Of a stretch of 64,000 nucleotides of DNA, positions 20 through 57,449 are shown one piece after another; within the stretch, counting starts at the first letter, position 1, and each line of letters begins with the position of its first letter. The notes below the pieces were generated by a model. It was not told the DNA's origin and ran no database searches. It was given only the letters and a program-made list of their open reading frames with translations. Made by a program: the position numbers and the translations under genes. This DNA is from Thermoplasmata archaeon (GTDB taxonomy: Archaea > Thermoplasmatota > Thermoplasmata > Lutacidiplasmatales > UBA184), in the NCBI GenBank assembly GCA_049802875.1, contig JBARNH010000007.1, positions 67,194 through 131,193 on the forward strand, written 5' to 3'.

Positions 20-1396
20 CTAGGGCGCCTCCACCGAGTACATCCGCCACTCCCCTTCCAAGCCTTTCAGGCTTCGCATCCCACGATCCGAGAACCGCAC
101 GTCAGAGCCGACGGAGAGGTCCCGGACGGTGCCGGAAACCAGGACTTCACCGTCAGCGGCCTCCCGGCTGACCCGGGCGGCGATGTGCACGGCTATGCCC
201 TGAACATCCCCATCCTTGAGGACGCACTCGCCTGTGTGGAGACCGGTGCGGATTTCCAATCCGGCCTTCCGAGCTTGGTCTCGGAGCGTGCACGCGCACC
301 GAACAGCCCGGGTTGGGCCGTCGAAGATCGCGAGGATCCCGTCGCCGGTCGTCTTTATCGTCCTGCCTTGGAAGCGGGCGGTTTCGGTGCGCGCATCCTC
401 CAGGAATCGGTTGAGCAGATCGCCCCAAGCCCGATCCCCCAGGTTGGCCGCCCGACGCGTCGACTCGACTACGTCCGTAAAGAGGACGGTGGTCAGGACG
501 CGGTCGGTCTCGGGGACGTCCGACAAGCCCCGAAGGAAATGGTGGATCTCGTCGAAGACAACCTTCGTCTGCTCGGAGGAGAGCCAGAAGAGATGGTCCT
601 GGCCGGGCGTTTCCACTAGTTGTGCACCCGGGATGTGAGCGGCCAGGTACCGTCCGTGCTCCAAGCTCACGGCTCGGTCGCCTTTGCAGTGCAGAATGAG
701 CGTCGGTACGTGCACGGCCCCGAGTACGGGCCGCACGTCGATCTCCATGTTCATCCGGGCGAGCGCCTCCCCGGACGCGGGGGAGCCACCGTTTCGCACC
801 AGTCGACCCAACCACCGCTTGAATTCGGCATCATCCATCCGACTGGGAGCAATCTCCGAAGTCAGCCGGTCGATATGGGCTGGAGACCCCCATTCCCCAC
901 GATCCCTCCGAATGGCGCTCTCCCACTGTTCTCGGGTGGGAGCCCATGGACACTCCGCTGACCAGACCCCTGTGGCGAGCCCACTCATCAGGATCAGCGC
1001 GCGAGTTCGTTCCGGATAGGTGGCGGCGAATAGTATCGCCACAGAAGCGGCGTCCCGAGCCGCGACGAGGATGGCCCGCTTGGAGTCGACCGCGTCCAGA
1101 ACTGCGCGACCGTCGTCCATGCGCTGTTCGAGAGTGGCTACGCCGACGTCTCGGTCGGACAAGCCGGTTCCCCGCTTGTCGAATACGATCAGTCGCCCGA
1201 GAGAGGCGAGGGCCTGGTGGTAGCGAGCATTCAGGGGATGGTCCCAAGCAACCTCCAGATGGTAGACGCCGCTGCGGGCGAGAAGAAAGTCAACCGGGCC
1301 AGTTCCGAGGACCTGGTAGGCGATATTGACCTCCCCACTCGTCGCGTACTTCACCTCGGGCTGTTCCATGGAAAGGGAGGCGTTCGGGACAGGCAT
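20..1396 (-). CDS. alpha/beta-hydrolase fused to class III adenylate/guanylate cyclase catalytic domain
   Basis: 458-aa ORF. The N-terminal half has an alpha/beta-hydrolase fold (VFDKRGTGLSD, HG). The C-terminal half is a CHD cyclase domain (VLFTDVVEST...KTTGDGILAIF...GLHTGECV...GIAVHIAARV). Confidence 0.75.
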   Translation of the reverse strand: MPVPNASLSMEQPEVKYATSGEVNIAYQVLGTGPVDFLLARSGVYHLEVAWDHPLNARYHQALASLGRLIVFDKRGTGLSDRDVGVATLEQRMDDGRAVLDAVDSKRAILVAARDAASVAILFAATYPERTRALILMSGLATGVWSAECPWAPTREQWESAIRRDRGEWGSPAHIDRLTSEIAPSRMDDAEFKRWLGRLVRNGGSPASGEALARMNMEIDVRPVLGAVHVPTLILHCKGDRAVSLEHGRYLAAHIPGAQLVETPGQDHLFWLSSEQTKVVFDEIHHFLRGLSDVPETDRVLTTVLFTDVVESTRRAANLGDRAWGDLLNRFLEDARTETARFQGRTIKTTGDGILAIFDGPTRAVRCACTLRDQARKAGLEIRTGLHTGECVLKDGDVQGIAVHIAARVSREAADGEVLVSGTVRDLSVGSDVRFSDRGMRSLKGLEGEWRMYSVEAP

Positions 1397-2929: not shown

Positions 2930-3224
2930 CGAGGGCCCCAAGAGCGGGAGGGGCACTTGATACCTTGGGTTACATCCGGCACTATTCGGACTCCGGAGGT
3001 TCGCGGCGCGGTGTCTGCAATGGTCATTGCACTTCAGCCCACTTTCGCCGAGAGGGGTAGACCAGTCATTGCTCTGGGTATCCTCGCAGCGGCGTCGGTC
3101 GATCGGATGCGACCTCCAGTTCGTTTGGTGTTGTCCAACTCGAGGGTTTGGTATTCTAGATGCGTTCAATTCCGAGAGCGACTCCGAAAGCGAGGATGTC
3201 GTTGGGCACGGAGGTCAACGCATC

Positions 3225-4841
3225 TTACGAGACGAATCCCAACAAGCACCGAGGATCACCTAGGGACACGGGTGATAACCCCCCTAGCCAGGGCAATGGG
3301 TGTTCGGAGTGGAGGACACACGGAAGGTAAACTAGGTCCAGGACACGCGGCGAACTAGCTCGAAGCTGAGTCGAGGCCTTCGGGTTAGTTGCCCGGACGT
3401 CGTTGACGTAGAGCTGCACGAGCCTCAACGCCTCGGCTTCCGTCGTCAACGGCGGAATGGCCTGTTGCCCAGGAATTGAGTACGACCCCACCCCCTGCAA
3501 AATCGCGGACAACCCTCCGCTCTGACTGATCTTCTGCTCCTTACCCGAAACACGACCATAGTAACCGGTGAGCGGTCGATTTCCACCGCGGGCAGAGAAG
3601 ACGTCTGTCAGGACCCGGAAGCTGCCCGCACCGGCCAGCGTGGTTACGTCGGTGGAGAAAGTGGCGGCAACGAGCAACACCTCGGGAACCTCTTTTCCCC
3701 GCTTCGTCCAGAGGACTCCGGTTTCGAAGGTATACGGAAGCTCCACGACCCAGAAGGGGACGAAAGTTCCGCCTCCGACGTTCAACAACTTAACTGCCCC
3801 TCTCCCCGACTGTGCGGCGCGAACCTCGGCTGCGCGTCGAAATATTTCCTCCTGGAATTTCAGGGACCGAAACGAAGTGGTCCAATCGCTCGGGGCGCTC
3901 CGTGAGAGCCAATCTACCACCGAGCCAAGTCTTTGGAGATACGCCAGTGGATGCGGGGGCACATTCAGAGAGTTTTCGGAGAGGTTGATCATGGAATTAA
4001 CCATCCGGATGACAGTCAGTTCCTGATCGACCGCCGTGGTCATGTACCCTAGTTCGGGGATCGATGACAAAGCTGTTCGCGCCGTTTTTAGTTCGCCCTC
4101 CGCCGCTCCGAGCAGTTTGCGGGGTAGTTCGAATTCCCGCCCTGTTACCAACTGGTCGACCGCCTTGCACTCCTCAGTAAGCCCGGCCAGCCGAGTCGAT
4201 AGGGCCGGCCAACGGCCTATGCTGGCGATTGCCTCCGAAGCCGTTGCGAGATTCTGCGAGATAAGATGAAAACGCTCGGGGTGGTTGCTCTGAGAAAGCT
4301 TCTCGACGACCAGGAGTGATTGATAGCAGGATGCCAGTCCGCTGGCTCGACGGATGAGCTCTCGAGCAGTCTCATCTACGGCCAGAGCTGAAATGGATTG
4401 TACTTTCGCATTGAAAACGGACACGGCTGCCGGGTTTTCACCCGAAGATGGGCGAAGGCTCGATATGAACGGAAGTGAGGCCAGCGGGGACGAGAGAAGT
4501 TGGAAGCAACGAAACCGGTACTGATCGCTTTCAGTGCTAAGGTGGGGCCGAATACCCGTGTTGAAGGCGGCGAGACGTGCCATTGGGTCCACATACTGCG
4601 ATCCCGAGACATCGAGACCCGGTGGAACCGTTTGTCGAACGAACGCTGTGACCTGGGCCATGAAATGGTCGAGAAATTGACGGGCATCGACGATTCTCTG
4701 CGATGTCCCGCAATAATCGCACGTTAGTATCTCTCCCTCGGAACGCGGGGAATAGGGAGCGCCGCATGCACTGCACCTTAGCCTATATTCGGAGAACATC
4801 GCGTCGGGCGCGAGCTGGCTGGTCGCTCCTACTCCCGTCAT
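3225..4841 (-). CDS. hypothetical protein with N-terminal CxxC-N13-CxxC zinc ribbon
   Basis: 538-aa ORF. The N-terminus reads CSACGAPYSPRSEGEILTCDYCGTS. No recognisable catalytic motifs. GC is lower than the surrounding DNA. It lies 33 bp downstream of ORF 4874..5968 on the same strand. Confidence 0.6.
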   Translation of the reverse strand: MTGVGATSQLAPDAMFSEYRLRCSACGAPYSPRSEGEILTCDYCGTSQRIVDARQFLDHFMAQVTAFVRQTVPPGLDVSGSQYVDPMARLAAFNTGIRPHLSTESDQYRFRCFQLLSSPLASLPFISSLRPSSGENPAAVSVFNAKVQSISALAVDETARELIRRASGLASCYQSLLVVEKLSQSNHPERFHLISQNLATASEAIASIGRWPALSTRLAGLTEECKAVDQLVTGREFELPRKLLGAAEGELKTARTALSSIPELGYMTTAVDQELTVIRMVNSMINLSENSLNVPPHPLAYLQRLGSVVDWLSRSAPSDWTTSFRSLKFQEEIFRRAAEVRAAQSGRGAVKLLNVGGGTFVPFWVVELPYTFETGVLWTKRGKEVPEVLLVAATFSTDVTTLAGAGSFRVLTDVFSARGGNRPLTGYYGRVSGKEQKISQSGGLSAILQGVGSYSIPGQQAIPPLTTEAEALRLVQLYVNDVRATNPKASTQLRASSPRVLDLVYLPCVLHSEHPLPWLGGLSPVSLGDPRCLLGFVS

Positions 4842-4873
4842 AGCTTCCTCTCTACGTACTGCAATCCCGGCCC

Positions 4874-5968
4874 CTAAGACCCCGATGCATGCTGCAATCG
4901 ATGCTCCATCGCACGCATTTCACGCATTAGCCGATCTTCAACCTGGCTCACTCGTTGAACTGCGATCCGGTCCGCCAGGTCGCCGATCGCCGAGTAGCAG
5001 CCCTTGCAGACGTAGACATACCGGCCGGACCGATCCATTGAAGGGAGTGGCGACGTGCCATGGAGGTTCAATCCAGTGGCTTCCTTGTCGACTGTGAGTG
5101 AAACGAATTGGACACCATGACCAGTCCCCTCCCTTCCGCACACCCAGCATTTGGCTTTCAACGCAAGATTGCCTGATTTGATCGCCGCACTCTGGGCGTT
5201 GTCATCGTAGCCCGCCTGCGCCCAGTACTGCTGGGCAGTTTGGAAGTGCTCGGCGGCAGTCATTGGGTCGGTGCCTTCGAGAGATTTCCCCAATACCTCG
5301 AACGACAGGGCCATCAATATCGGCGCTTGAAAATCCGCCGGAATGGCTCGATGCTCAAGAAGTTCAGGGAGGTAAAGGACCTTGTTTCCCAACTGGCGAT
5401 ATTCGTCGGCGAGGCTCTGGAGGCCCTGTGCCAAACTCTCGGGATTGCCAGACTGGGAGCGAGCCATGGCCGTCAGGCTGGCGTACCGTGCAGTCAGCTG
5501 CAATTCGTTCGCCAATTCACTAGAACTGGTCCCTCTCGCCCCAAGTTTGAGCTCAATCGTTCCGGGAATGTTTTGGAGCAGCGAAAATAGTGCCATCAGC
5601 GAGGATGGATCCGAGTTTCTCACTGCGCTCGAAAGTAGGTTGGTGTAGGCCGTCGCGACGTTGGCGTACAAGAGGTTACCCTCTCGCGAAAACTTTCGAG
5701 TTGCATCGATGAACTTCTCACTGGCCCTCGAATGATCGCCGCGTCGGGCAAGGTCGAGGCCTTGCTCCAACGTCGCAGCCCCATCCTTGATGATCGGCAC
5801 AGGCAGAGGACCGACCATAGAATCTGTCTCTTCCAGCGTATAAAAGGCACTGAAGCTCAGGTCGTATCGTTCCCTGGGCTGAATCGAGCCCCGGAGGGGT
5901 TCCTGCATCTCGGATGAAGCGGACCACTCTGCTCCCGCGCTGGTGCGGCACGGGCACGATCGGTGCAA
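4874..5968 (-). CDS. hypothetical helical protein with C-terminal CxxC-N35-CxxC zinc ribbon
   Basis: 364-aa ORF. Alternative starts are at 5908 (MQEPL) or 5818 (MVGPL). The body is alpha-helical (TPR-like); the C-terminus has CWVCG...YVCKGC followed by a charged tail. It is probably co-transcribed with 3225..4841. Confidence 0.55.
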   Translation of the reverse strand: MHRSCPCRTSAGAEWSASSEMQEPLRGSIQPRERYDLSFSAFYTLEETDSMVGPLPVPIIKDGAATLEQGLDLARRGDHSRASEKFIDATRKFSREGNLLYANVATAYTNLLSSAVRNSDPSSLMALFSLLQNIPGTIELKLGARGTSSSELANELQLTARYASLTAMARSQSGNPESLAQGLQSLADEYRQLGNKVLYLPELLEHRAIPADFQAPILMALSFEVLGKSLEGTDPMTAAEHFQTAQQYWAQAGYDDNAQSAAIKSGNLALKAKCWVCGREGTGHGVQFVSLTVDKEATGLNLHGTSPLPSMDRSGRYVYVCKGCYSAIGDLADRIAVQRVSQVEDRLMREMRAMEHRLQHASGS

Positions 5969-5982
5969 TCAACCGCGCAGCC
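5961..5982. repeat. palindromic motif copy (degenerate)
   Basis: CGGTGCAATCAACCGCGCAGCC. Confidence 0.3.
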
Positions 5983-6010
5983 AGTCCTGACGACAAGGGT
6001 CCCTCGGGTG

Positions 6011-6029
6011 GGTGCAACGGTCGTTGCAC
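6011..6029. repeat. GGTGCAA-Nx-TTGCACC family palindromic motif
   Basis: GGTGCAACGGTCGTTGCAC (N4 spacer variant), upstream of the Zn-ribbon gene pair. Confidence 0.5.
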
Positions 6030-6489
6030 GCATCTGGCTATCGCCCGCGCTGGGATCGCGTATCCGAATCCCGTTTTCGAGCGGTTAACGAGACCCTTGC
6101 TCGCCAGGTATTTATTCCGGGTAGCTCTTCGCACTGTTGGAGGGCACAGAATCGAAGTAGATGCGGGGAGGCGGGAGCTTCTCAACTGGACCCCGGGAAC
6201 GGCCCGGGTTACGCCTTGGTTGGGGCGAGAATCCGGTCTGCTAATATCAATTGTTAAAATCAACTTTGAGCCCGATTAACGGGGCGTAAAACCTGAACTA
6301 AATCTGGACCACTTCTACGTGTGCTTCTGTAAGGAAGCTTCCGAGACGATTCACTAATCGACCCTTATTCCGATAACCATCTTAGCAAACAGGGAAGACT
6401 TCGAAACACAACCGCGCCTCGACCGTCCGAGCGAGAAGGATCTCTCGACTCTAGCGTCGCCCAAGGTTCGAGCCCGAAGGAAGCAGAAT

Positions 6490-6906
6490 ATGGCGACGAG
6501 GATTGGAGAAGAGGGAGAGCGCGAGACACCGCCGCCCGAGCAGAGGGGGAGACTTCTGCGCCCAAGCACCGTAGCAGTGCTGAAACAAGCCCTTCAGCAC
6601 TACTTGGAGCACGAGCGTGACTTCGTGGACGCTTACTTCCCCGAAGTCGCGAGACGCGGATACGTGACATGGGGGGATGTGTTTGGACTGAGCGACCGAC
6701 AAGCGGATGCATGCCGCCCAATATTGTTGGAAAGCATCCGACACTTCTTGAAAGAGGATGCCAGAGAGCGGAACCGCAACGTCCACCTGTTGACCCGCGA
6801 ACCGGTCGATCCAAACTTCGTTTCTTTCCCCGCCCGAAAGGCGAAGGCTTGGACAGAGGCGCTTCGCGACCTCTGCAACGTTTTCGGGCTGGAGTGCTTG
6901 GGATAA
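6490..6906 (+). CDS. hypothetical protein
   Basis: 138-aa ORF with balanced amino-acid composition. GGAAG lies 8 nt upstream of the ATG. It is followed immediately by a perfect hairpin plus T-tract. Confidence 0.5.
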   Translation: MATRIGEEGERETPPPEQRGRLLRPSTVAVLKQALQHYLEHERDFVDAYFPEVARRGYVTWGDVFGLSDRQADACRPILLESIRHFLKEDARERNRNVHLLTREPVDPNFVSFPARKAKAWTEALRDLCNVFGLECLG

Positions 6907-6923
6907 ATCGGACGGCGGGCCAC

Positions 6924-6960
6924 GGGACCCTCCCTGAGGGAGGGTCCCATTATTTTCCCG
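6924..6960 (+). terminator. intrinsic-terminator-like hairpin (GGGACCCTCCCT-G-AGGGAGGGTCCC) followed by ATTATTTTCCC
   Basis: A perfect 12-bp inverted repeat at 6924-6948, then a T-rich tract, 18 nt after the stop of ORF 6490..6906. Confidence 0.5.
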
Positions 6961-7535
6961 CTAAATCTGTGCTCTCTCTACCCCACTGATTAAGATCTGT
7001 TGGAAGGGTTTGAACCCATGTATGTTGAATGCCTATTGCACCCAATGATCCCTCGTGTGAACTGTGCCGTGTTCCAAACGGGCCCGTTAATCACGCGGGC
7101 AACTTCGGTGGAGGGGAACTTGGGGCCAGTAGTCCTCGCACATACTCGGCTGTCCCGCTCCGACAAACGGTGGTCGAGCGTCGCCCTGACTCTATCAGGA
7201 ACTGGTAGACACTCGGCGGACACCAGTGTCAGGCTATCCGGCCAAAGACGACCCCGAATGCGTGCCCTAGCACCCCATTAAATCCAGAGCCCTAGCAACG
7301 AAGCCCTGGACGATCAATGCGACCCTGCTGGTAAAAAATGGGTAGAAGGTCACGCCGAGGGGGAAGACGGCGACACCTCCCATGTACCCGACGATGGTGG
7401 TCCGGCTCGAATCAGACCGGCCCAGGCGTTGTTCCCGATAATTGGGAAATCATCCCGGTGCCGAACGGAGGGACTTCCTATCGGAGATAGCAAGACCCGG
7501 GTCCGTGTCGTCCAGGAACCATGACGTCGCCACGG

Positions 7536-9155
7536 CTAACTTGCGTCGACCGAGACCATGCTCACGCTGTGCTGGAAGGAGTTGGTGACAAGGAGCTCTC
7601 CATTCCCATTGTCAGACGCCTCGCCATAGGAGCCGCTATCTACCGGGACGATGGCGAGGACCTGGTTCGTCGCAGCCGAGATTATACTCAGCAAGTTACC
7701 TGTCGCGAAGACGTCTCCTGTCACGCTGTCATAGGCGACCGCGAAGGGATTGGGCTCGACCGCTATGGTTGCCACCACCGTGTTCGTCACGTCCGAGATC
7801 ACGCTCAGGTTGGCTGAGCCGGCGTTCGAGACAAAGATCTCTCCCTGGCTACTGTCATACGCGACGCCGAATGGATAGTCTCCCATCGGGATAGTAGCCG
7901 CCACCTCATTCGTCGTGGCTGAGATGACGCTCACACTGTCCGAACCCGGGCTGGCTACGAAGAGCTCGCCCTTTCCACTGTCGTACGCGACGGCTACCGG
8001 TCCACTTGCCACGGCGAGGTTCGCCACCACCTGGTTGGTCGCGTCCGAAATCACGGTCACGTTGTTGCCGCTCGTGACGAACAACTCCCCATTCGCGGGG
8101 TCATACGCCACGCCCATGGGATAGGAGCCCACGGAGATCGTCGAAACCACTTTGTCCGTCAGGGCGGAGATCACCGTGACGAGGCTCGCGCCCCACTCCG
8201 TTACGAACACCTCTTATTTCGCGCTATCGTAAGCGGCGTAACTGGGAAATTCTGGGTACGGTACCGGGATCGACGTCACGACTTTGTTGGTGGTCGCGCT
8301 AATTACGGTCACCTCGTCCACGTCGCTGACCGCAACGAAGAACTCGCCCTTCGCCGGATCGTACGCAACACCGCTGGGGAGATACCCCACGGGGATACTC
8401 GTCACGACTCGGTACGCCGGCTCCCGATCGATGAAACCGGCGCGGGAGTTGGAGAACGCAAAGATCCCCAGGACGTCCGCCCGATTCTGGCCGCCGCCGT
8501 CGTGATTAGTCGAAGTTTCCGTGAAGGAGTAGGTTCCGGACGCGAGCTGCGACTCGCCAATCAGCACCCCCGACCAGGTGCCGCCGGTCCCATTTGACTC
8601 AATCACCAGCCCCGGAACGCCGCTCATAAGGATAGTGTTCTGCCCGCCACTCAGTGCGATCAGCACGACGAACGCAGACTCGGGCAAAACCAGTTTCTCG
8701 GTGAGGGTAGTGGTCGCTTGGACCGGTGGGATCGAGACCTTTGTCTTTTCCCCGTAGTACTGGAAACCGCTGACGGCAAAGCCTCCGATGGAAAATTGAG
8801 AGTCACTGGTCGTGTAGTTGTCGGAGGTCTCCTGAGTGACCGCGAGGGCCGCTGCGACGTTCCCATCCCGATCGACAGCGTTGACAAGGTCTCCAGACGA
8901 GAATCCGGTAGAGGGCTGGGTTCCCCCGTTGGCCATTCCGAACACGCTCAGCACGCCGGGGTACGCGAGCGTCTGAGAGTCCGCCCGGTTATGAACCGAG
9001 GGTCCAATGAGATGGGGAGTCGACGAGGTCGCACTGGTCAGTCCGGAGGTCGAGAGATCACGAACCGGTCCTGGGGCCGGGAGGGTGCCGGTCGACTGCG
9101 CAGACACGGACGGCAGTAGCATGACGCCGACAATCGCTACGACTGCGAGCAACAC
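7536..9155 (-). pseudogene. secreted YVTN beta-propeller repeat surface protein interrupted by an in-frame TAA (8214-8216)
   Basis: ORFs 8214..9155 (signal peptide MLLAVVAIVGVMLLPSVSA) and 7536..8210 are in the same frame, separated only by TAA-GAG-GTG. The YVTN repeat (VAYDxxxGE[LIF]FVxxxxxxxVSVISATTNxV) runs straight across the stop: AAYDSAK*EVFVTEWG. The stop sits where the conserved Gly falls. Confidence 0.55.
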
Positions 9156-9489
9156 GGCCGAATGAGCGACTCCACGTCGAGACGGGACCTTCCGCCGTCA
9201 TATCGTCACTTACATGTTCCTTTCGGACCCGAAGCGTCTCGGCGGCGGAGACGAAGTCGACCTTAATAAATCCCGTTGGCGGATCCTGTCGGCTGCGTGC
9301 TAACATGCCATGACCTCCCTTGACTATCGTCGGGCCGTCTAACGCTACCCTTGATGCTCGCCGCGGACCGAACCCACCCCGGCGTTCGAATCGGGTCGTT
9401 TCCGCCCACTGTAGGTCCGTCGCCATCGGTCGGCGCAAAGGAAGCCGGCCTAGTGTCCTTAAGGTAGGCTATCGAATACAGCAGTTCGG

Positions 9490-11242: not shown

Positions 11243-12367
11243 GTGCAGCCCTACGATCCACAACGTCCGGCGAGCCCCGGGACGTTTGCCGGACGTCACG
11301 AACTGTTGGAGTTCGCCGGCAATGCTCTGCGGGTCGCCGCGACACTTCATCGCGGGAGCGCGATTCTGCTTTACGGGTACCGGGGGAGTGGTAAGACCTC
11401 GGCCCTCCGAAAGATTCAATCCATTGTTAGAGACACTACCCCACACGGCGTTGTTATTGAAGTTCCACTCCGTGTGCCTAGCACAGAAGCGATGCTGGTC
11501 CACAGCATCGCCGAGATGGTACGTCGCGAAGTGACGTCCCAGGAAAAACTCACAAGCCGGATGAAGAAAGCGCTCGGAAACCTGAGCGCGGTAACGGTTC
11601 TGGGGAGCGGGATCGAGCGAACGAAACCACTACCCTTCACGCCCTCCACACTCCTCACAGTGTGGAAGGACGCACTCCTTGCACTCGGGGATCTGCCCCT
11701 TTTGGCAATCAGCATCGACGACGCCGAGCTTCTCAAGGCCGGCGAAATTGGGATTCTCAAGACGATGGTTGAAACAGACTCTCCAGTGCCGATTCTGATG
11801 GTGGTTGCTGGTGGACCTGAGCTCATCGAGAAACTCTCTCTTCGCGAAGCGTCACCAATCCTTCGGTCGTTCTCGGGTGCAGTCTTTGACATCGGCCAGT
11901 TCTCGGAGGTGGAAACTCTGGAGGCCCTGGAAGCCCCCGTTAAACAGATCAAGGGGACCGGACGGTGGGACGCCTCGGCGGTTAAGGCGATTCACCATCT
12001 GACACACGGATACCCCTACCTGGTGCAATGCTTCGCGGCGGCGGCATATCAAGACAGTCGACGCATCAAGGGTGAAGACGTTCAACGGGCGATCCCTGGA
12101 GCCATGCAACTGGCTTCGAGCTGGCTCGAACGCGAGCTTCCGGAAGCCTCAGACGAAGACATCAGGGCATTCGCCAAAATCGCCACTTCAGGCAAAGTCG
12201 AGTTTCGAAGTTCCGACGCCATCCGGATGGGCATCAATCACATCTATCTCTCAAGGCTCACTACTCAAGGAGTCCTCAAGCGGCTGGCCCGGGGTCATTA
12301 CGAGCTTCGAATGGCGCCCGCGATCGCATACTTTCACGCGCTGAGGCGAGGGCTAAGCGCAGTCTGA
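11243..12367 (+). CDS. AAA+ ATPase of the archaeal-ATPase (Arch_ATPase-like) family with C-terminal winged-helix-like region
   Basis: Walker A YGYRGSGKTSAL. Walker B LLAISIDDAEL. Overall architecture resembles orphan archaeal ATPases. An AT-rich region lies upstream. Confidence 0.65.
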   Translation: MQPYDPQRPASPGTFAGRHELLEFAGNALRVAATLHRGSAILLYGYRGSGKTSALRKIQSIVRDTTPHGVVIEVPLRVPSTEAMLVHSIAEMVRREVTSQEKLTSRMKKALGNLSAVTVLGSGIERTKPLPFTPSTLLTVWKDALLALGDLPLLAISIDDAELLKAGEIGILKTMVETDSPVPILMVVAGGPELIEKLSLREASPILRSFSGAVFDIGQFSEVETLEALEAPVKQIKGTGRWDASAVKAIHHLTHGYPYLVQCFAAAAYQDSRRIKGEDVQRAIPGAMQLASSWLERELPEASDEDIRAFAKIATSGKVEFRSSDAIRMGINHIYLSRLTTQGVLKRLARGHYELRMAPAIAYFHALRRGLSAV

Positions 12368-12559: not shown

Positions 12560-12633
12560 ACTCCGAATCTGCTGACTCGTTGCGAGGCTGCATCAGGCGT
12601 TCGGAAAGGGGTCCCTTTCGTGTGGGCGTGAGG

Positions 12634-24383: not shown

Positions 24384-24722
24384 ATGGCCTTCGAGGTCCT
24401 GTCAGATCCGACACGACTCCGTATTGTTGAACAGCTCCGGTGCGGCGAGCGGTCGGTAGGCACTCTCGTCTCTACGCTCTCCGTCTGCCAACCCGGGATC
24501 TCGCGCCACCTTCGGATTCTTCACGACCGCGGATTCGTTCGAGTCCGCGCCGACGGCCAGCGACGACTGTACTCCTTGCGGCCGCAACCTTTCCGGGATA
24601 TCGATCGGTGGATGAACGACTATCGCGACCTCGTTGAGGACCGCTTGGATCGGCTCGAGCAGCTGGTCGAATCTGACCGGTCGAAATCACACTCCCCTAA
24701 GCGAGAACCGCGGAGGGGCTGA
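24384..24722 (+). CDS. ArsR/SmtB-family transcriptional regulator
   Basis: FEVLSDPTRLRIVEQLRCGERSVGTLVSTLSVCQPGISRHLRILHDRGFV (HTH ArsR). Alternative starts at 24330 or 24369. Confidence 0.75.
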   Translation: MAFEVLSDPTRLRIVEQLRCGERSVGTLVSTLSVCQPGISRHLRILHDRGFVRVRADGQRRLYSLRPQPFRDIDRWMNDYRDLVEDRLDRLEQLVESDRSKSHSPKREPRRG

Positions 24723-53422: not shown

Positions 53423-53854
53423 ATGGAGCCGCTCCAGAGACTGACTCGCCGACAACTCGACACCCTCCAGACGATCGGAGCGAAGGAGTCGCCCGAACGA
53501 GGAGTGGCACTCAAACTGGTTGCGGCATCACTCCACCTCAGCGCGCCCTCGGCTCTGGGCCACATGACGCCACTTGAGCAGCTCGGGTTGGTCGAGCGCC
53601 ATCGCGGCAAGAGCCGCCTGACAAACAAGGGCCGAAACACCTTGCTCGAGTACGAGCGACATCACAGAGTCGCAGAGAGCCTGTTCGGTAGTCTCGGCCT
53701 TTCTCCTTCGGAGACCTGTGCCGCCGCCCGGGAGATCGATCTCGCAATCACGCACCGCACCGTCGAGGAGGTCTGTCGGGCGCAGGCGCACCCGTCCACC
53801 TGTCCTCACGGGCAGCCGATCGCTGCGTGTTCGACCGAACGGGGAGCTCGCTGA
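53423..53854 (+). CDS. DtxR/MntR-family metal-dependent transcriptional regulator
   Basis: LTRRQLDTLQTI...GVALKLVAASLHLSAPSALGHMTPLEQLGLVERHRGKS..LTNKGRNTLLEYERHHRVAESLF. Confidence 0.75.
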   Translation: MEPLQRLTRRQLDTLQTIGAKESPERGVALKLVAASLHLSAPSALGHMTPLEQLGLVERHRGKSRLTNKGRNTLLEYERHHRVAESLFGSLGLSPSETCAAAREIDLAITHRTVEEVCRAQAHPSTCPHGQPIAACSTERGAR

Positions 53855-53856
53855 GA

Positions 53857-55068
53857 ATGGCGGGGGAGGCTCCGGAGTCACCACCCGACCCCTCGGCTTC
53901 CGACTTGTCCGTAGGGCAGCCGGCGTCCCCGACATCGCCCGGTGTTCGGGCTTCCCGCAAACCCCCTCGGACGGGAAGGTCGACGTTGGCGATCGCCGCC
54001 ATCGTGGCGGTGGTCATCATTCTCGTGGGGGGCGCGGTCGCCTATGAAGTAGTGACCAGCAAGGCCGCAGGCAACCCCTGTGCTGCCTTCACGCCCCAGC
54101 AGCTCGGAGCGAACGCCACCCCGGGTCAAGTCTCGGGGAACACGACCCCGAACTACGCGCAGGCCACCTCGTTGACCAACGGACCCCTTGCCACGGTGTC
54201 CGTGGGGCAGACAATCCAGGTGGTCGCGGGGGAAAACTTCTGGGGTAGTCTTGTCAGCCAGATGGGCGGAAACCTGACGAACGTGCTGAGCATCGTGAGC
54301 GACCCGAACGCGGACCCCCACGAATACGAGGCGAACGCCTCGGACGCGGCCGCGATCACTCACGCGAATTTCGTGATCGTCAACGGCGTCGGCTACGACG
54401 ACTGGGCCCTCCAACTGATTGGAGCGGCGGACAGTCCCGGTCAGGAAGTGTTGAATGTAGGTACACTGAACGGCGTCTTCGTCACGGGAGGGATCGTCAC
54501 GGGCAACCCCCACCAGTGGTACAACCCGCTCTACGTGAACCACACTCTGTTGGCGATGTACTCCGACCTTGTCGCCCTTCAGCCGGCCTCGAAAGCGATC
54601 TTCCAGCAGAACTTCGCGAACATCAACTCCTCCGCGGGCGGGGGGGCCGGGGGGGTTTCGATCGATCAGCTCTACGCCCGCGCCAACCAGATCCGGGACG
54701 ATTTCGCCGGCACGGTCGTGGTCTCGACGGAGAGCATCTTCGTCTATCTCGCCAACTACACGGGGCTCGACCTGATCGCGCCCCCAGAGTTCATGGAGGC
54801 CATCGCGGAAGGGAACGACCCGCCGGCGTCCAGCGTAGCCTTGTTCGAGTGTCAGCTCGAGAGCGGTTACGTGAAGGTGCTGGTGTACAACATTCAGACG
54901 GTGACCCCCATCACGACCACAGTCGAGGGAATCGCCGGGGTGAACAACGTGACGGTCACCTACGTGAGCGAGACCATCCAGCCCCCGGACACGAGCTTCC
55001 AGGATTGGATGTACGGGGAGTACAACTCCCTCATCAACGCGCTCAACTCCGAACAGCTGGGGAAATGA
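53857..55068 (+). CDS. metal (Zn/Mn) ABC transporter substrate-binding protein (ZnuA/TroA-like, cluster A-I)
   Basis: N-terminal TM anchor (TLAIAAIVAVVIILVGGAVAY). The ...DPHEYE... metal-binding region is typical of TroA-like SBPs. The start immediately follows the regulator's stop. Confidence 0.7.
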   Translation: MAGEAPESPPDPSASDLSVGQPASPTSPGVRASRKPPRTGRSTLAIAAIVAVVIILVGGAVAYEVVTSKAAGNPCAAFTPQQLGANATPGQVSGNTTPNYAQATSLTNGPLATVSVGQTIQVVAGENFWGSLVSQMGGNLTNVLSIVSDPNADPHEYEANASDAAAITHANFVIVNGVGYDDWALQLIGAADSPGQEVLNVGTLNGVFVTGGIVTGNPHQWYNPLYVNHTLLAMYSDLVALQPASKAIFQQNFANINSSAGGGAGGVSIDQLYARANQIRDDFAGTVVVSTESIFVYLANYTGLDLIAPPEFMEAIAEGNDPPASSVALFECQLESGYVKVLVYNIQTVTPITTTVEGIAGVNNVTVTYVSETIQPPDTSFQDWMYGEYNSLINALNSEQLGK

Positions 55069-55074
55069 CGGCCG

Positions 55075-55959
55075 GTGGACGCTGACCTCCCCCACCCACC
55101 GGTGTTCCAGTCGACGGCGAGCCGTCTCGCCCGATCCGGTCCGCCGGCGATCCGGGCCGAACGCCTCGAAGTACGGTACCGGAACAAGCTCGTGTGGAAG
55201 GACGCTACGTTCGATGTCCAGCCCGGCGAGTTCGTCGCGGTCATCGGCCCCAATGGGGCGGGCAAGACGACGCTCTTCCGCATGCTGCTCGGACTCCACT
55301 GGCCGTCGAGCGGGCACCTTTCCGTCTTCGGCTCCCCTCCCCGCCGGGGCAACTACCGGATCGGCTACGTCCCGCAACGGCACACGATCGACCGAGAGAC
55401 GCACCTCGAGTGCGACAAACTCGTCCGCCTGGGCTACCCGGGGACCCGATGGGGGCCGGGGAAGCGCTGGGCCCCTTTGCAGTGGGGTCCCCGATTCCGA
55501 TTGGGGGCGGAGCGCGAGGCGGCGGCCCGAGCGCTCGAGGATGTTGGGGCTTCCGACCTCGGCTCCAAATCGCTGGGCGCGCTCTCCGGCGGGGAGTTGC
55601 AGCGGATCTTCCTGGCCGAGGCGCTGGTGGGGAGCCCCGACATGCTGTTGCTCGACGAGCCGCTCTCTAACCTCGACCTTCGCCGGAGCCGGGAGTTGGT
55701 CGAGACGATCCACGGGTTGGTCGTCTCTCGCGGGGTGACGACCCTCCTCGTCGCCCACGACATCAATCCGATGATCAAGTGCCTCGACAAGGTGATCTAC
55801 ATCGCCAACGGCCACGTCGCGGTGGGAGCCCCGGACGACGTCCTCTCTTCGGAGCGGCTCTCGGCGCTTTACGGGGTCCACGTCGAAGTGCTGCACGATT
55901 CCCGGGGCAACCTGGTGATCGTGGGCGGAGAGGACGAACGCGGGGAGGAAGGGGCATGA
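55075..55959 (+). CDS. metal ABC transporter ATP-binding protein (ZnuC-like)
   Basis: GTG start. Walker A GPNGAGKTT. Signature LSGGELQRI. Walker B MLLLDEPLSNLD. Confidence 0.8.
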   Translation: MDADLPHPPVFQSTASRLARSGPPAIRAERLEVRYRNKLVWKDATFDVQPGEFVAVIGPNGAGKTTLFRMLLGLHWPSSGHLSVFGSPPRRGNYRIGYVPQRHTIDRETHLECDKLVRLGYPGTRWGPGKRWAPLQWGPRFRLGAEREAAARALEDVGASDLGSKSLGALSGGELQRIFLAEALVGSPDMLLLDEPLSNLDLRRSRELVETIHGLVVSRGVTTLLVAHDINPMIKCLDKVIYIANGHVAVGAPDDVLSSERLSALYGVHVEVLHDSRGNLVIVGGEDERGEEGA

Positions 55960-57449
55960 GCGGGGGCTGGAGCGGCATTCCCTGGAGCTGGAACTTCATC
56001 ACCGACGTGCGGACCCTCTGGTCGTACGAGTTCATGCGCAATGCGGTGGAGGCCGGAACGATCATCGCGATCATGGCCGGCATCATCGGCTACTTTGTCG
56101 TCCTGCGCCGTTCGTCCTTCGCCAGTCATGCCCTCGGCCACACGGGATTCTCGGGAGCGGCCGCCGCCGTCCTGGTCGGAGCCCAGCCGGTCTTCGGTCT
56201 CTTGATCTTCACCATCGCGGCGGCGAGTGGCATGGCCGTCCTGGGCACCCGTACGTCGAGCCGGGATGTCGAGATCGGGACGGTGCTCGCCTTCTCCCTG
56301 GGACTCGGATTGCTGTTTCTCAGCCTCTATCAGGGGTACGCCCAGGAGGCGTACTCGATCCTCTTTGGGGAGGTGCTGGGCATCAGCACCGCCGAAGTGG
56401 CCTTCACGTTCTGGAGCTGCTTGGGGGTCCTCGCGATCCTGGCGCTGATCTACCGCCCGCTACTGTTCGCGTCGCTTGACGAAGATGTCGCGGAGGCGAA
56501 GGGATTGCCCCTGGTCGGGCTCAACCTCGCGTTCCTGATTCTCCTCGCGGTGACGATCTCGTTCGCGGTCCAGATCATCGGTGTTCTGCTCATCTTTGCG
56601 CTGACGGTCACACCCGCCGCCATCGCAGTGCGCTTGACCAAACGGGCCCTGTGGGCGGTGGTGGTCTCCATCCTCGTGGCCGTGACCTCCGTCTGGGGGG
56701 GGTTGTTCGTCGCGCTTTGGACGAACTATCCCGCGAGTTTCTTCATCGTGGGCATCGTCTTCGTCGAGTACGTGTGCATCCGGGGCGTCGGCGTGCTCCG
56801 GGAAACGGCCCTCCTGCAAGCGGTCGATGCGTCCGAGCGGGAGGGAGTGCGATCGCTCCGGGACGCTTCGCTCACCGCGTCCATCTCCCAGGGGTTGTTC
56901 CTCGGTGGCGCTGCCTTCCTGACGGTGAGCCTGCTTGCGTACCCGGGGGCAGCGTGGAACCCCGCCGGCCTCTACGCGCACGCGGTCTGGGCGATTCTCT
57001 GCCTCGCATCAGGAGCGATCGTCGGGACGGCCTCCTTTCTCCTCTACTTCTCGGGGTTTCGAAAGATGGCCACCTCCTCCCGAGAGTTCACCCCTCCCGC
57101 CTTCCTGACTCTCGTAGGACTTCTGGGGTTTGCCCTGACTGCCGGGGGGCTCGGGCTCTATCTCTCGGGGGTAGCCCTCACCGCGACCTCCTACGGCCTC
57201 GCTCCAGTGGCGGTCCTGTTCGGCGCTCCGCTGCTCTTCCTGGGGGTGATCCTCTCCGTGGTGGGCCTCTTCGGCCAGGCGATGGGCAGCTGGCGCGCAG
57301 GATTCAGGTACCAGGACGGCACGCTGCGGGCCGGCGCGATTCTCATGATCCTCCCGGCGGTCGGACACGGGGTCTCCTACGTTGGTTACCGTCGAGCGCT
57401 CGCTCGCGAACCGAGCCTCGCCGCGCCTCCTTTGAGCGCATCCGCCTGA
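55956..57449 (+). CDS. ABC-3 family (ZnuB-like) permease with ~200-aa C-terminal multi-TM extension
   Basis: ATGA overlap with the ZnuC-like stop. The N-terminal ~280 aa match ABC-3 permeases. The C-terminal part adds about 5 more predicted helices. Confidence 0.7.
   Translation: MSGGWSGIPWSWNFITDVRTLWSYEFMRNAVEAGTIIAIMAGIIGYFVVLRRSSFASHALGHTGFSGAAAAVLVGAQPVFGLLIFTIAAASGMAVLGTRTSSRDVEIGTVLAFSLGLGLLFLSLYQGYAQEAYSILFGEVLGISTAEVAFTFWSCLGVLAILALIYRPLLFASLDEDVAEAKGLPLVGLNLAFLILLAVTISFAVQIIGVLLIFALTVTPAAIAVRLTKRALWAVVVSILVAVTSVWGGLFVALWTNYPASFFIVGIVFVEYVCIRGVGVLRETALLQAVDASEREGVRSLRDASLTASISQGLFLGGAAFLTVSLLAYPGAAWNPAGLYAHAVWAILCLASGAIVGTASFLLYFSGFRKMATSSREFTPPAFLTLVGLLGFALTAGGLGLYLSGVALTATSYGLAPVAVLFGAPLLFLGVILSVVGLFGQAMGSWRAGFRYQDGTLRAGAILMILPAVGHGVSYVGYRRALAREPSLAAPPLSASA

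Follow-up and report, generated by a model that had tools for sequence, protein, structure and literature searches.

The disrupted YVTN gene

Within the window, by which we mean the whole 64,000-nucleotide (64-kb) stretch of DNA analysed, the sequence and its ORF list define a 1620-nt span on the minus strand that is a single reading frame with a lone internal stop at codon 314. The features of this span, including the domains predicted for the undisrupted protein, are the following.

8214..9155, minus strand: ORF1, 313 aa, from GTG 9155 to TAA 8216..8214; hydrophobic N-terminus (LLAVVAIVGVMLLPSVSA), all-beta N-domain, blade 1 and strands 1-2 of blade 2
8214..8216, minus strand: internal TAA stop, codon 314; a sister strain has CAA (Gln)
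7536..8210, minus strand: ORF2, 224 aa, from GTG 8210 to TAG 7538..7536; last two strands of blade 2 and blades 3-7, without an export signal of its own
8451..9014, minus strand: predicted N-terminal all-beta domain, residues ~48-235, 13 strands, pLDDT ~60-85, conserved in the family
7551..8411, minus strand: predicted seven-bladed YVTN propeller of the undisrupted protein, residues 249-535, 28 strands, pLDDT mostly >90

Read on the minus strand, the junction is ...CCC AGT TAC GCC GCT TAC GAT AGC GCG AAA TAA GAG GTG TTC GTA ACG..., in which the TAA is followed by GAG (8213..8211) and then by GTG (8210..8208). A sequence-only reading of this DNA had written these codons exactly so, and its two claims about them, that an in-frame TAA splits a YVTN beta-propeller gene and that a GTG restart lies 3 nt past it, were both borne out. 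Joined, ORF1 and ORF2 make a protein of 539 aa whose hydrophobic N-terminus is followed by an all-beta N-domain and by exactly seven YVTN blades, and in this joined sequence the seven repeat units, each with the motif A-Y-D-x-x-x-G-E, remain in register across the stop. The stop stands at the G position of repeat unit 2, which is Gly in the other six blades. The earlier proposal that it had replaced an invariant Gly was therefore right about the repeat position but wrong about the codon, as the intact sister allele has CAA (Gln); Gln already occupied the G position of blade 2 before the stop arose, with CAA as the ancestral codon. The protein P0001 is 100% identical to ORF1, and no paralogue of the YVTN gene was found within the 64-kb window.

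Family membership and predicted structure

Against the NCBIfam profiles, ORF2 matched TIGR02276 in four stretches (130 bits, E=2.2e-38; the cut-off is 27.85 bits), and the same profile matched residues 273-300 of ORF1 at 25.8 bits, just below the cut-off. It is thus through ORF2 that the gene shows the several tandem repeats of about 40 residues, above the cut-off, that define the family. The YncE equivalog profile NF052280 scored only 47.7 bits vs a cut-off of 400, which places the gene outside that equivalog.

A homologue search with the joined sequence, carrying an X at the stop, returned many YVTN proteins, named in their sources as YVTN or YncE family proteins of Thermoplasmata MAGs. The best full-length matches were 553-588 aa long, with 43-56% identity over 97-100% of the query, and the E-values of unsplit full-length homologues ranged from 1e-156 to 1e-109. 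All 15 of the aligned homologues were uninterrupted, the alignment passing straight across codon 314, where at least 90% of them have Gly, and the ORF2 part could be aligned with them up to their C-termini. Because the joined sequence matches unsplit homologues over nearly its full length, we regard the TAA as a stop in a once-continuous gene and not as a chance arrangement of two frames; an in-frame stop within a sequence that is continuous in 15 homologues is what a pseudogene is expected to show. The nearest genomes are Thermoplasmata MAGs from soil and peat (Microflora Danica, SMAG and SPRUCE isolates), some of which have two members of the family.

The structure of the intact allele's protein was predicted by AlphaFold2 with 18 homologues. 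In the model, residues 1-44 form a disordered N-terminus, and the N-domain is joined by a short linker to the propeller, which for the intact allele has the complete seven-bladed fold. Residue 314 falls in a turn of blade 2, the one that connects its strand 2 (304-310) to its strand 3 (315-320); on this model the TAA allele of the window is unable to form the propeller fold. The best Foldseek match in the PDB was 1L0Q_A (E=5.5e-19, rmsd 1.5 A, 31% identity), with E. coli YncE next. For the all-beta N-domain of ~190 residues there was no match in Pfam, and we found nothing specific to this N-domain/propeller family in the archaeal YVTN literature. The N-domain is modular in Thermoplasmata: it is combined here with a YVTN propeller and in L007 (3941..5359) with an unrelated C-terminal domain, and in L009 (3866..4939) nothing further than a C-terminal membrane helix follows it.

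Lesions upstream of the start codon

The region upstream of ORF1 holds the remains of an older start, with the following features.

9213..9215, minus strand: ancestral start ATG of the family, in frame with ORF1, 20 codons upstream of GTG 9155
9210..9212, minus strand: in-frame TAA at ancestral codon 2, common to all strains seen
9198..9200, minus strand: in-frame TGA at ancestral codon 6, common to all strains seen

The ATG (9215..9213) aligns without gaps with the start Met of seven homologues (P0002, P0003, P0005, P0008, P0009, P0014 and P0016), and also with that of the homologue on L004. The homologues begin with M and about ten residues, followed by S-R-R-G-[IV]-x-x-S and then by a hydrophobic segment. 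That segment, LLAVVAIVGVMLLPSVSA-QS, is present in ORF1, and the part corresponding to the homologues' basic n-region lies upstream of the only usable start, behind the two stops. There, after the TGA, the 14 codons upstream of GTG 9155 encode RRKVPSRRGVAHSA in frame, with no start codon among them; this stretch still matches the basic n-region of the family's signal peptides (SRRGVAHSAVLLAVVAI here vs SRRGITHSTLLLAVVAI in P0002). With two stops after the family ATG, GTG 9155 is therefore the only possible start, and the basic n-region has been lost. A TATA-like sequence, TTTATTAA, can be made out by direct reading at 9270..9263, about 50 nt upstream of the old ATG.

The two 5' stops are the same in the contigs L001, L002 and L003 as in the window, with no mismatch between 9329 and 8734. 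As they occur in every strain seen, the gene must have been damaged before the TAA at codon 314 arose. Relative to its family, the gene thus has three in-frame stops, two of them fixed in the strains seen and one polymorphic, and the TAA at ancestral codon 2 and the TGA at ancestral codon 6 provide the further lesions by which a pseudogene is recognized. The term incipient pseudogene, proposed earlier for this locus, fits these observations, but the reading that proposed it had missed both the TAA at 9212..9210 and the TGA at 9200..9198.

Strain polymorphism at codon 314

Clustering of ORF1 at 90% identity gave three members: ORF1's own product of 313 aa, which three Logan contigs encode; an NCBI protein of 302 aa ('Thermoplasmata archaeon') with three MAG accessions, which is the same sequence from a later ATG; and an undisrupted Logan protein of 539 aa that has Gln at codon 314. 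This intact allele lies on L001 (run SRR28060913), whose DNA is 99.7% identical to the window over 9336..7035. At window position 8216, L001 has C where the window has T, which on the coding strand is a C-to-T transition that turns CAA into TAA. Three Logan contigs carry the TAA allele: L002 (SRR28023494), without any difference from the window; L003 (SRR28041785), with 11 other differences from it and with a variant at 7272 in common with the CAA strain L001; and one more besides these. In total, the TAA allele occurs in three of the four Logan runs and in three NCBI MAG protein records, and the Logan runs that carry it may belong to one common study or site. A search for the exact junction pattern, with N at the variable base, gave no match in JGI metagenome contigs or GTDB species genomes, and exact look-ups of the ORF2 protein, with V or M as its first residue, gave none either.

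These data bear directly on whether the stop is an error of sequencing or assembly, with C as the true base and CAA as the true codon, as the sequence-only reading had allowed. In favour of an error, a CAA version does exist at the same site in another assembly (L001), but that contig differs from the window at three other in-gene sites and lacks the 4-kb segment downstream of the gene, and so comes from a different strain and is not a corrected copy. Assemblies of three separate Logan runs have the T, as do the three NCBI records; since L003 has it despite its 11 other differences and comes from another run, L003 represents a separate haplotype and was not assembled from the same data. Recurrence of the T in independent assemblies, one of them a separate haplotype, excludes a sequencing error for practical purposes, and we consider an error at this base extremely unlikely. 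The other suggestion of the same reading, a genuine nonsense mutation, is upheld by the intact CAA allele of L001 and by the TAA recurring in several runs; its proposed check by comparison of orthologues likewise came out in favour, both through the homologues unsplit across codon 314 and through the near-identical strain with an intact gene. The reads with GGA or GAA that it had named as refuting the mutation were aimed at the wrong codon, the sense allele being CAA. Being reproducible in independent data and accompanied by an intact allele in a close relative, the CAA-to-TAA change is, on the sequences compared, evidently a real nonsense mutation that segregates in a natural population.

Neighbourhood of the gene

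Between the YVTN gene and a gene for a BBE-type FAD oxidase, directly downstream of the former, lies a segment of 4002 bp (3033..7034) that is present in the window and in L002 and absent from L001; the contig of L003 ends exactly at 7035. At its two edges stands a 7-bp direct repeat (plus strand ATTGCAC; 3026..3032 and 7028..7034). The segment occurs once in the window, and its GC content is 57.4% vs 61.4% elsewhere. Its ORFs include two large ones with Cys-X2-Cys pairs (3225..4841, minus strand, 538 aa; 4874..5908, minus strand, 344 aa) as well as two small ones; none had a match in Pfam, PHROGs, PADLOC or plasmid records, and terminal inverted repeats were not found in the segment. It could be either the insertion of an uncharacterised mobile element with a target-site duplication or, conversely, a sequence removed from L001 by a microhomology-mediated deletion.

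Elsewhere in the window, two clusters of strain differences were seen: four synonymous changes within 10 bp (356..365) in a gene with a guanylate-cyclase domain, between L001 and the window, and five changes within 11 bp (12598..12608) in an intergenic region, between L003 and the window. Both resemble small tracts of recombination or repair more than they do separate point mutations. Upstream of the YVTN gene, at a distance of two genes, the plus-strand ORF 11243..12367 encodes an AAA_16/AAA_22 ATPase with a C-terminal winged-helix segment of the AbiEi type, the latter matched in PADLOC over a short stretch only (E=7e-6); its product may be a regulator or a defence-related protein. Downstream of the ZnuA gene (53827..55068), the plus-strand ORF 55671..57449 encodes an ABC-3 (ZnuB-like) permease with an in-frame C-terminal DUF973 region, a possible fusion. 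A six-frame scan of the window for long stop-free stretches with one stop between them also produced other candidates for split genes, all of which were rejected as shadow frames or unrelated neighbouring genes.

Constraint on the gene

Between the window and the CAA strain, all four in-gene differences change the protein (S141L, I199T, Q314stop and L380I), where 74% of changes would be expected to do so under neutrality, an excess that rests on these four changes only. In the neighbouring genes, one of the six differences between the same strains is protein-changing, and four of the five synonymous ones lie within 10 bp of each other and may represent a single event. Small as the numbers are, the pattern in the YVTN gene fits relaxed or diversifying selection. 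From GTG 9155 onwards, the CAA strain has an open frame of 539 codons with a normal GC3 (0.74-0.78), and for this reason the gene may have been functional from its GTG start until very recently, in which case to call it decaying could be an overstatement.

Alternative explanations for the internal stop

If a reassigned code, a suppressor tRNA or programmed read-through allowed TAA to be decoded as Gln, the full-length protein would still be made. The sister strain's sense codon, CAA, does specify Gln, the amino acid for which reassigned TAA or TAG codons stand in some eukaryotes and phages. Stop usage in the window speaks against such recoding. On a rough GC3-based map, genes end in TGA (27), TAG (19) and TAA (11), so that TAA terminates about 11 of the 57 roughly predicted genes. 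Among these are the genes for a GH15 glycosidase and a DAO oxidoreductase, in both of which the Pfam domain has run to its end a few residues ahead of the stop; the C-terminal domain is equally complete in the ZnuA, M28 and M19 genes, which stop at TGA, and in the BBE oxidase gene, which stops at TAG. In-frame stops interrupt no other gene in the 64-kb window, and TAA is thus neither unused as a terminator nor found in frame in many genes, as a reassigned codon would be. At its 5' end, the YVTN gene itself contains two more in-frame stops, a TGA and a TAA, which is more than any single recoding mechanism would explain. No tRNA genes and no Rfam matches were found in the 64-kb window. With all three stop codons ending conserved genes normally, the earlier view that TAA is not recoded here proved correct, and we consider the chance of recoding practically nil. 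We also consider it very unlikely that the locus is a functional split gene, in which translation terminates at the TAA and re-initiates at GTG 8210 to give two cooperating polypeptides, another possibility raised by the sequence-only reading. The GTG is only 3 nt past the stop, and other gene pairs of the window also have stop and start close together or overlapping (at 24722/24726 and 40932/40934, for instance), which makes coupled translation plausible in this organism. There is, however, no Shine-Dalgarno-like motif at a usable distance, the GAGGTG at the junction including the GTG itself, and the break falls, in the predicted structure, between strands 2 and 3 of blade 2 and not between domains. 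None of the 15 aligned homologues is split, and an unsplit sister at 99.7% DNA identity makes the split too recent to have been shaped by selection. Moreover, the sole hydrophobic N-terminus is on ORF1, which would leave the two halves in different compartments: the C-terminal piece, with its 5.5 blades and no export signal, could not come together again with an N-terminal piece that is secreted.

An adaptive truncation, in which the nonsense allele is favoured since an exposed propeller (a virus receptor or an adhesin, say) is lost and a secreted N-domain that works alone is kept, is in our judgement unlikely. The N-domain does behave as an autonomous module, to judge from its occurrence with a membrane helix in L009 and with an unrelated domain in L007; the TAA allele is the one present in three of the four Logan runs and in three MAG proteins; and a set of in-gene differences that all change the protein is also expected from diversifying selection. 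Against this, the N-terminal lesions weaken the export of any product, the 1.5 orphan blades left on the truncated protein would probably misfold, and the case for selection rests on few assemblies, which possibly do not come from independent populations. There is only a slim chance that selection keeps the TAA allele frequent, for instance through escape from a virus or predator that recognizes the propeller, and leaves a useful, secreted, stand-alone N-domain. If it did, the locus would capture a modular loss of domains as it happens in a family of archaeal surface proteins, one whose N-domain also occurs alone, as in L009.

Comparison with known systems

The gene resembles those of the archaeal S-layer YVTN proteins (TIGR02276; 1L0Q, a fragment of the Methanosarcina mazei S-layer) in that its repeats of ~42 residues match TIGR02276, that it has an N-terminal hydrophobic export segment, putative here, and that its predicted seven-bladed propeller superposes on 1L0Q_A at the rmsd and identity given above. 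Unlike in 1L0Q, where PKD domains follow the propeller, the propeller here is C-terminal and follows the all-beta domain, and unlike the genes of those S-layer proteins, this one is disrupted by three in-frame stops. With the YncE-family propellers (NF052280; 3VGZ, 3VH0) it shares the fold (Foldseek E ~1e-17, target TM-score 0.79), and NCBI labels homologues of this gene 'YncE family protein', but the identity is just 17%, the profile score is far from that of an equivalog, and E. coli YncE is without the extra N-terminal domain present here. The closest parallel is with ordinary prokaryotic pseudogenes that arise by point nonsense mutation and segregate among strains: a single transition makes the stop, a sister strain at 99.7% identity retains the intact allele, additional lesions occur in the gene, and the strain differences are mostly protein-changing. 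Nothing about the locus is materially unlike such pseudogenes, the only unusual detail being that the stop falls at the most conserved position of the repeat.

Interpretation

Taken together, these results very probably reflect a nonsense mutation, CAA (Gln314) to TAA, that segregates in a single-copy and already damaged gene of an uncultured Thermoplasmata archaeon from soil or peat. Under this nonsense-mutation explanation, the undisrupted gene would have encoded an exported protein with an N-terminal signal or anchor, the conserved all-beta N-domain and the seven-bladed YVTN propeller. The first damage would have been the two stops after the family ATG, which would have moved the start to GTG 9155 and removed the basic n-region, and the TAA at codon 314 would be the most recent event in the decay of a surface-protein gene that is dispensable and whose family has further members in related genomes. 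What the TAA allele produces would keep at most the N-domain and 1.5 blades and would form no closed propeller. We infer that the YVTN gene is under relaxed selection, and ORF2 probably gives no useful product.

The finding adds nothing new on genetic codes or translation. For annotation, it means that ORF1 and ORF2 should be merged into one disrupted gene (a pseudogene) instead of standing as two hypothetical proteins, and that ORF1 needs a flag marking its start as secondary. More generally, it offers a clean and checkable case in which in-frame stops in MAGs can be true strain polymorphisms and not assembly errors. The event itself is ordinary and of a known kind: point mutations are eroding a surface-protein gene, and the strains compared show it at a stage when the stop is still polymorphic.
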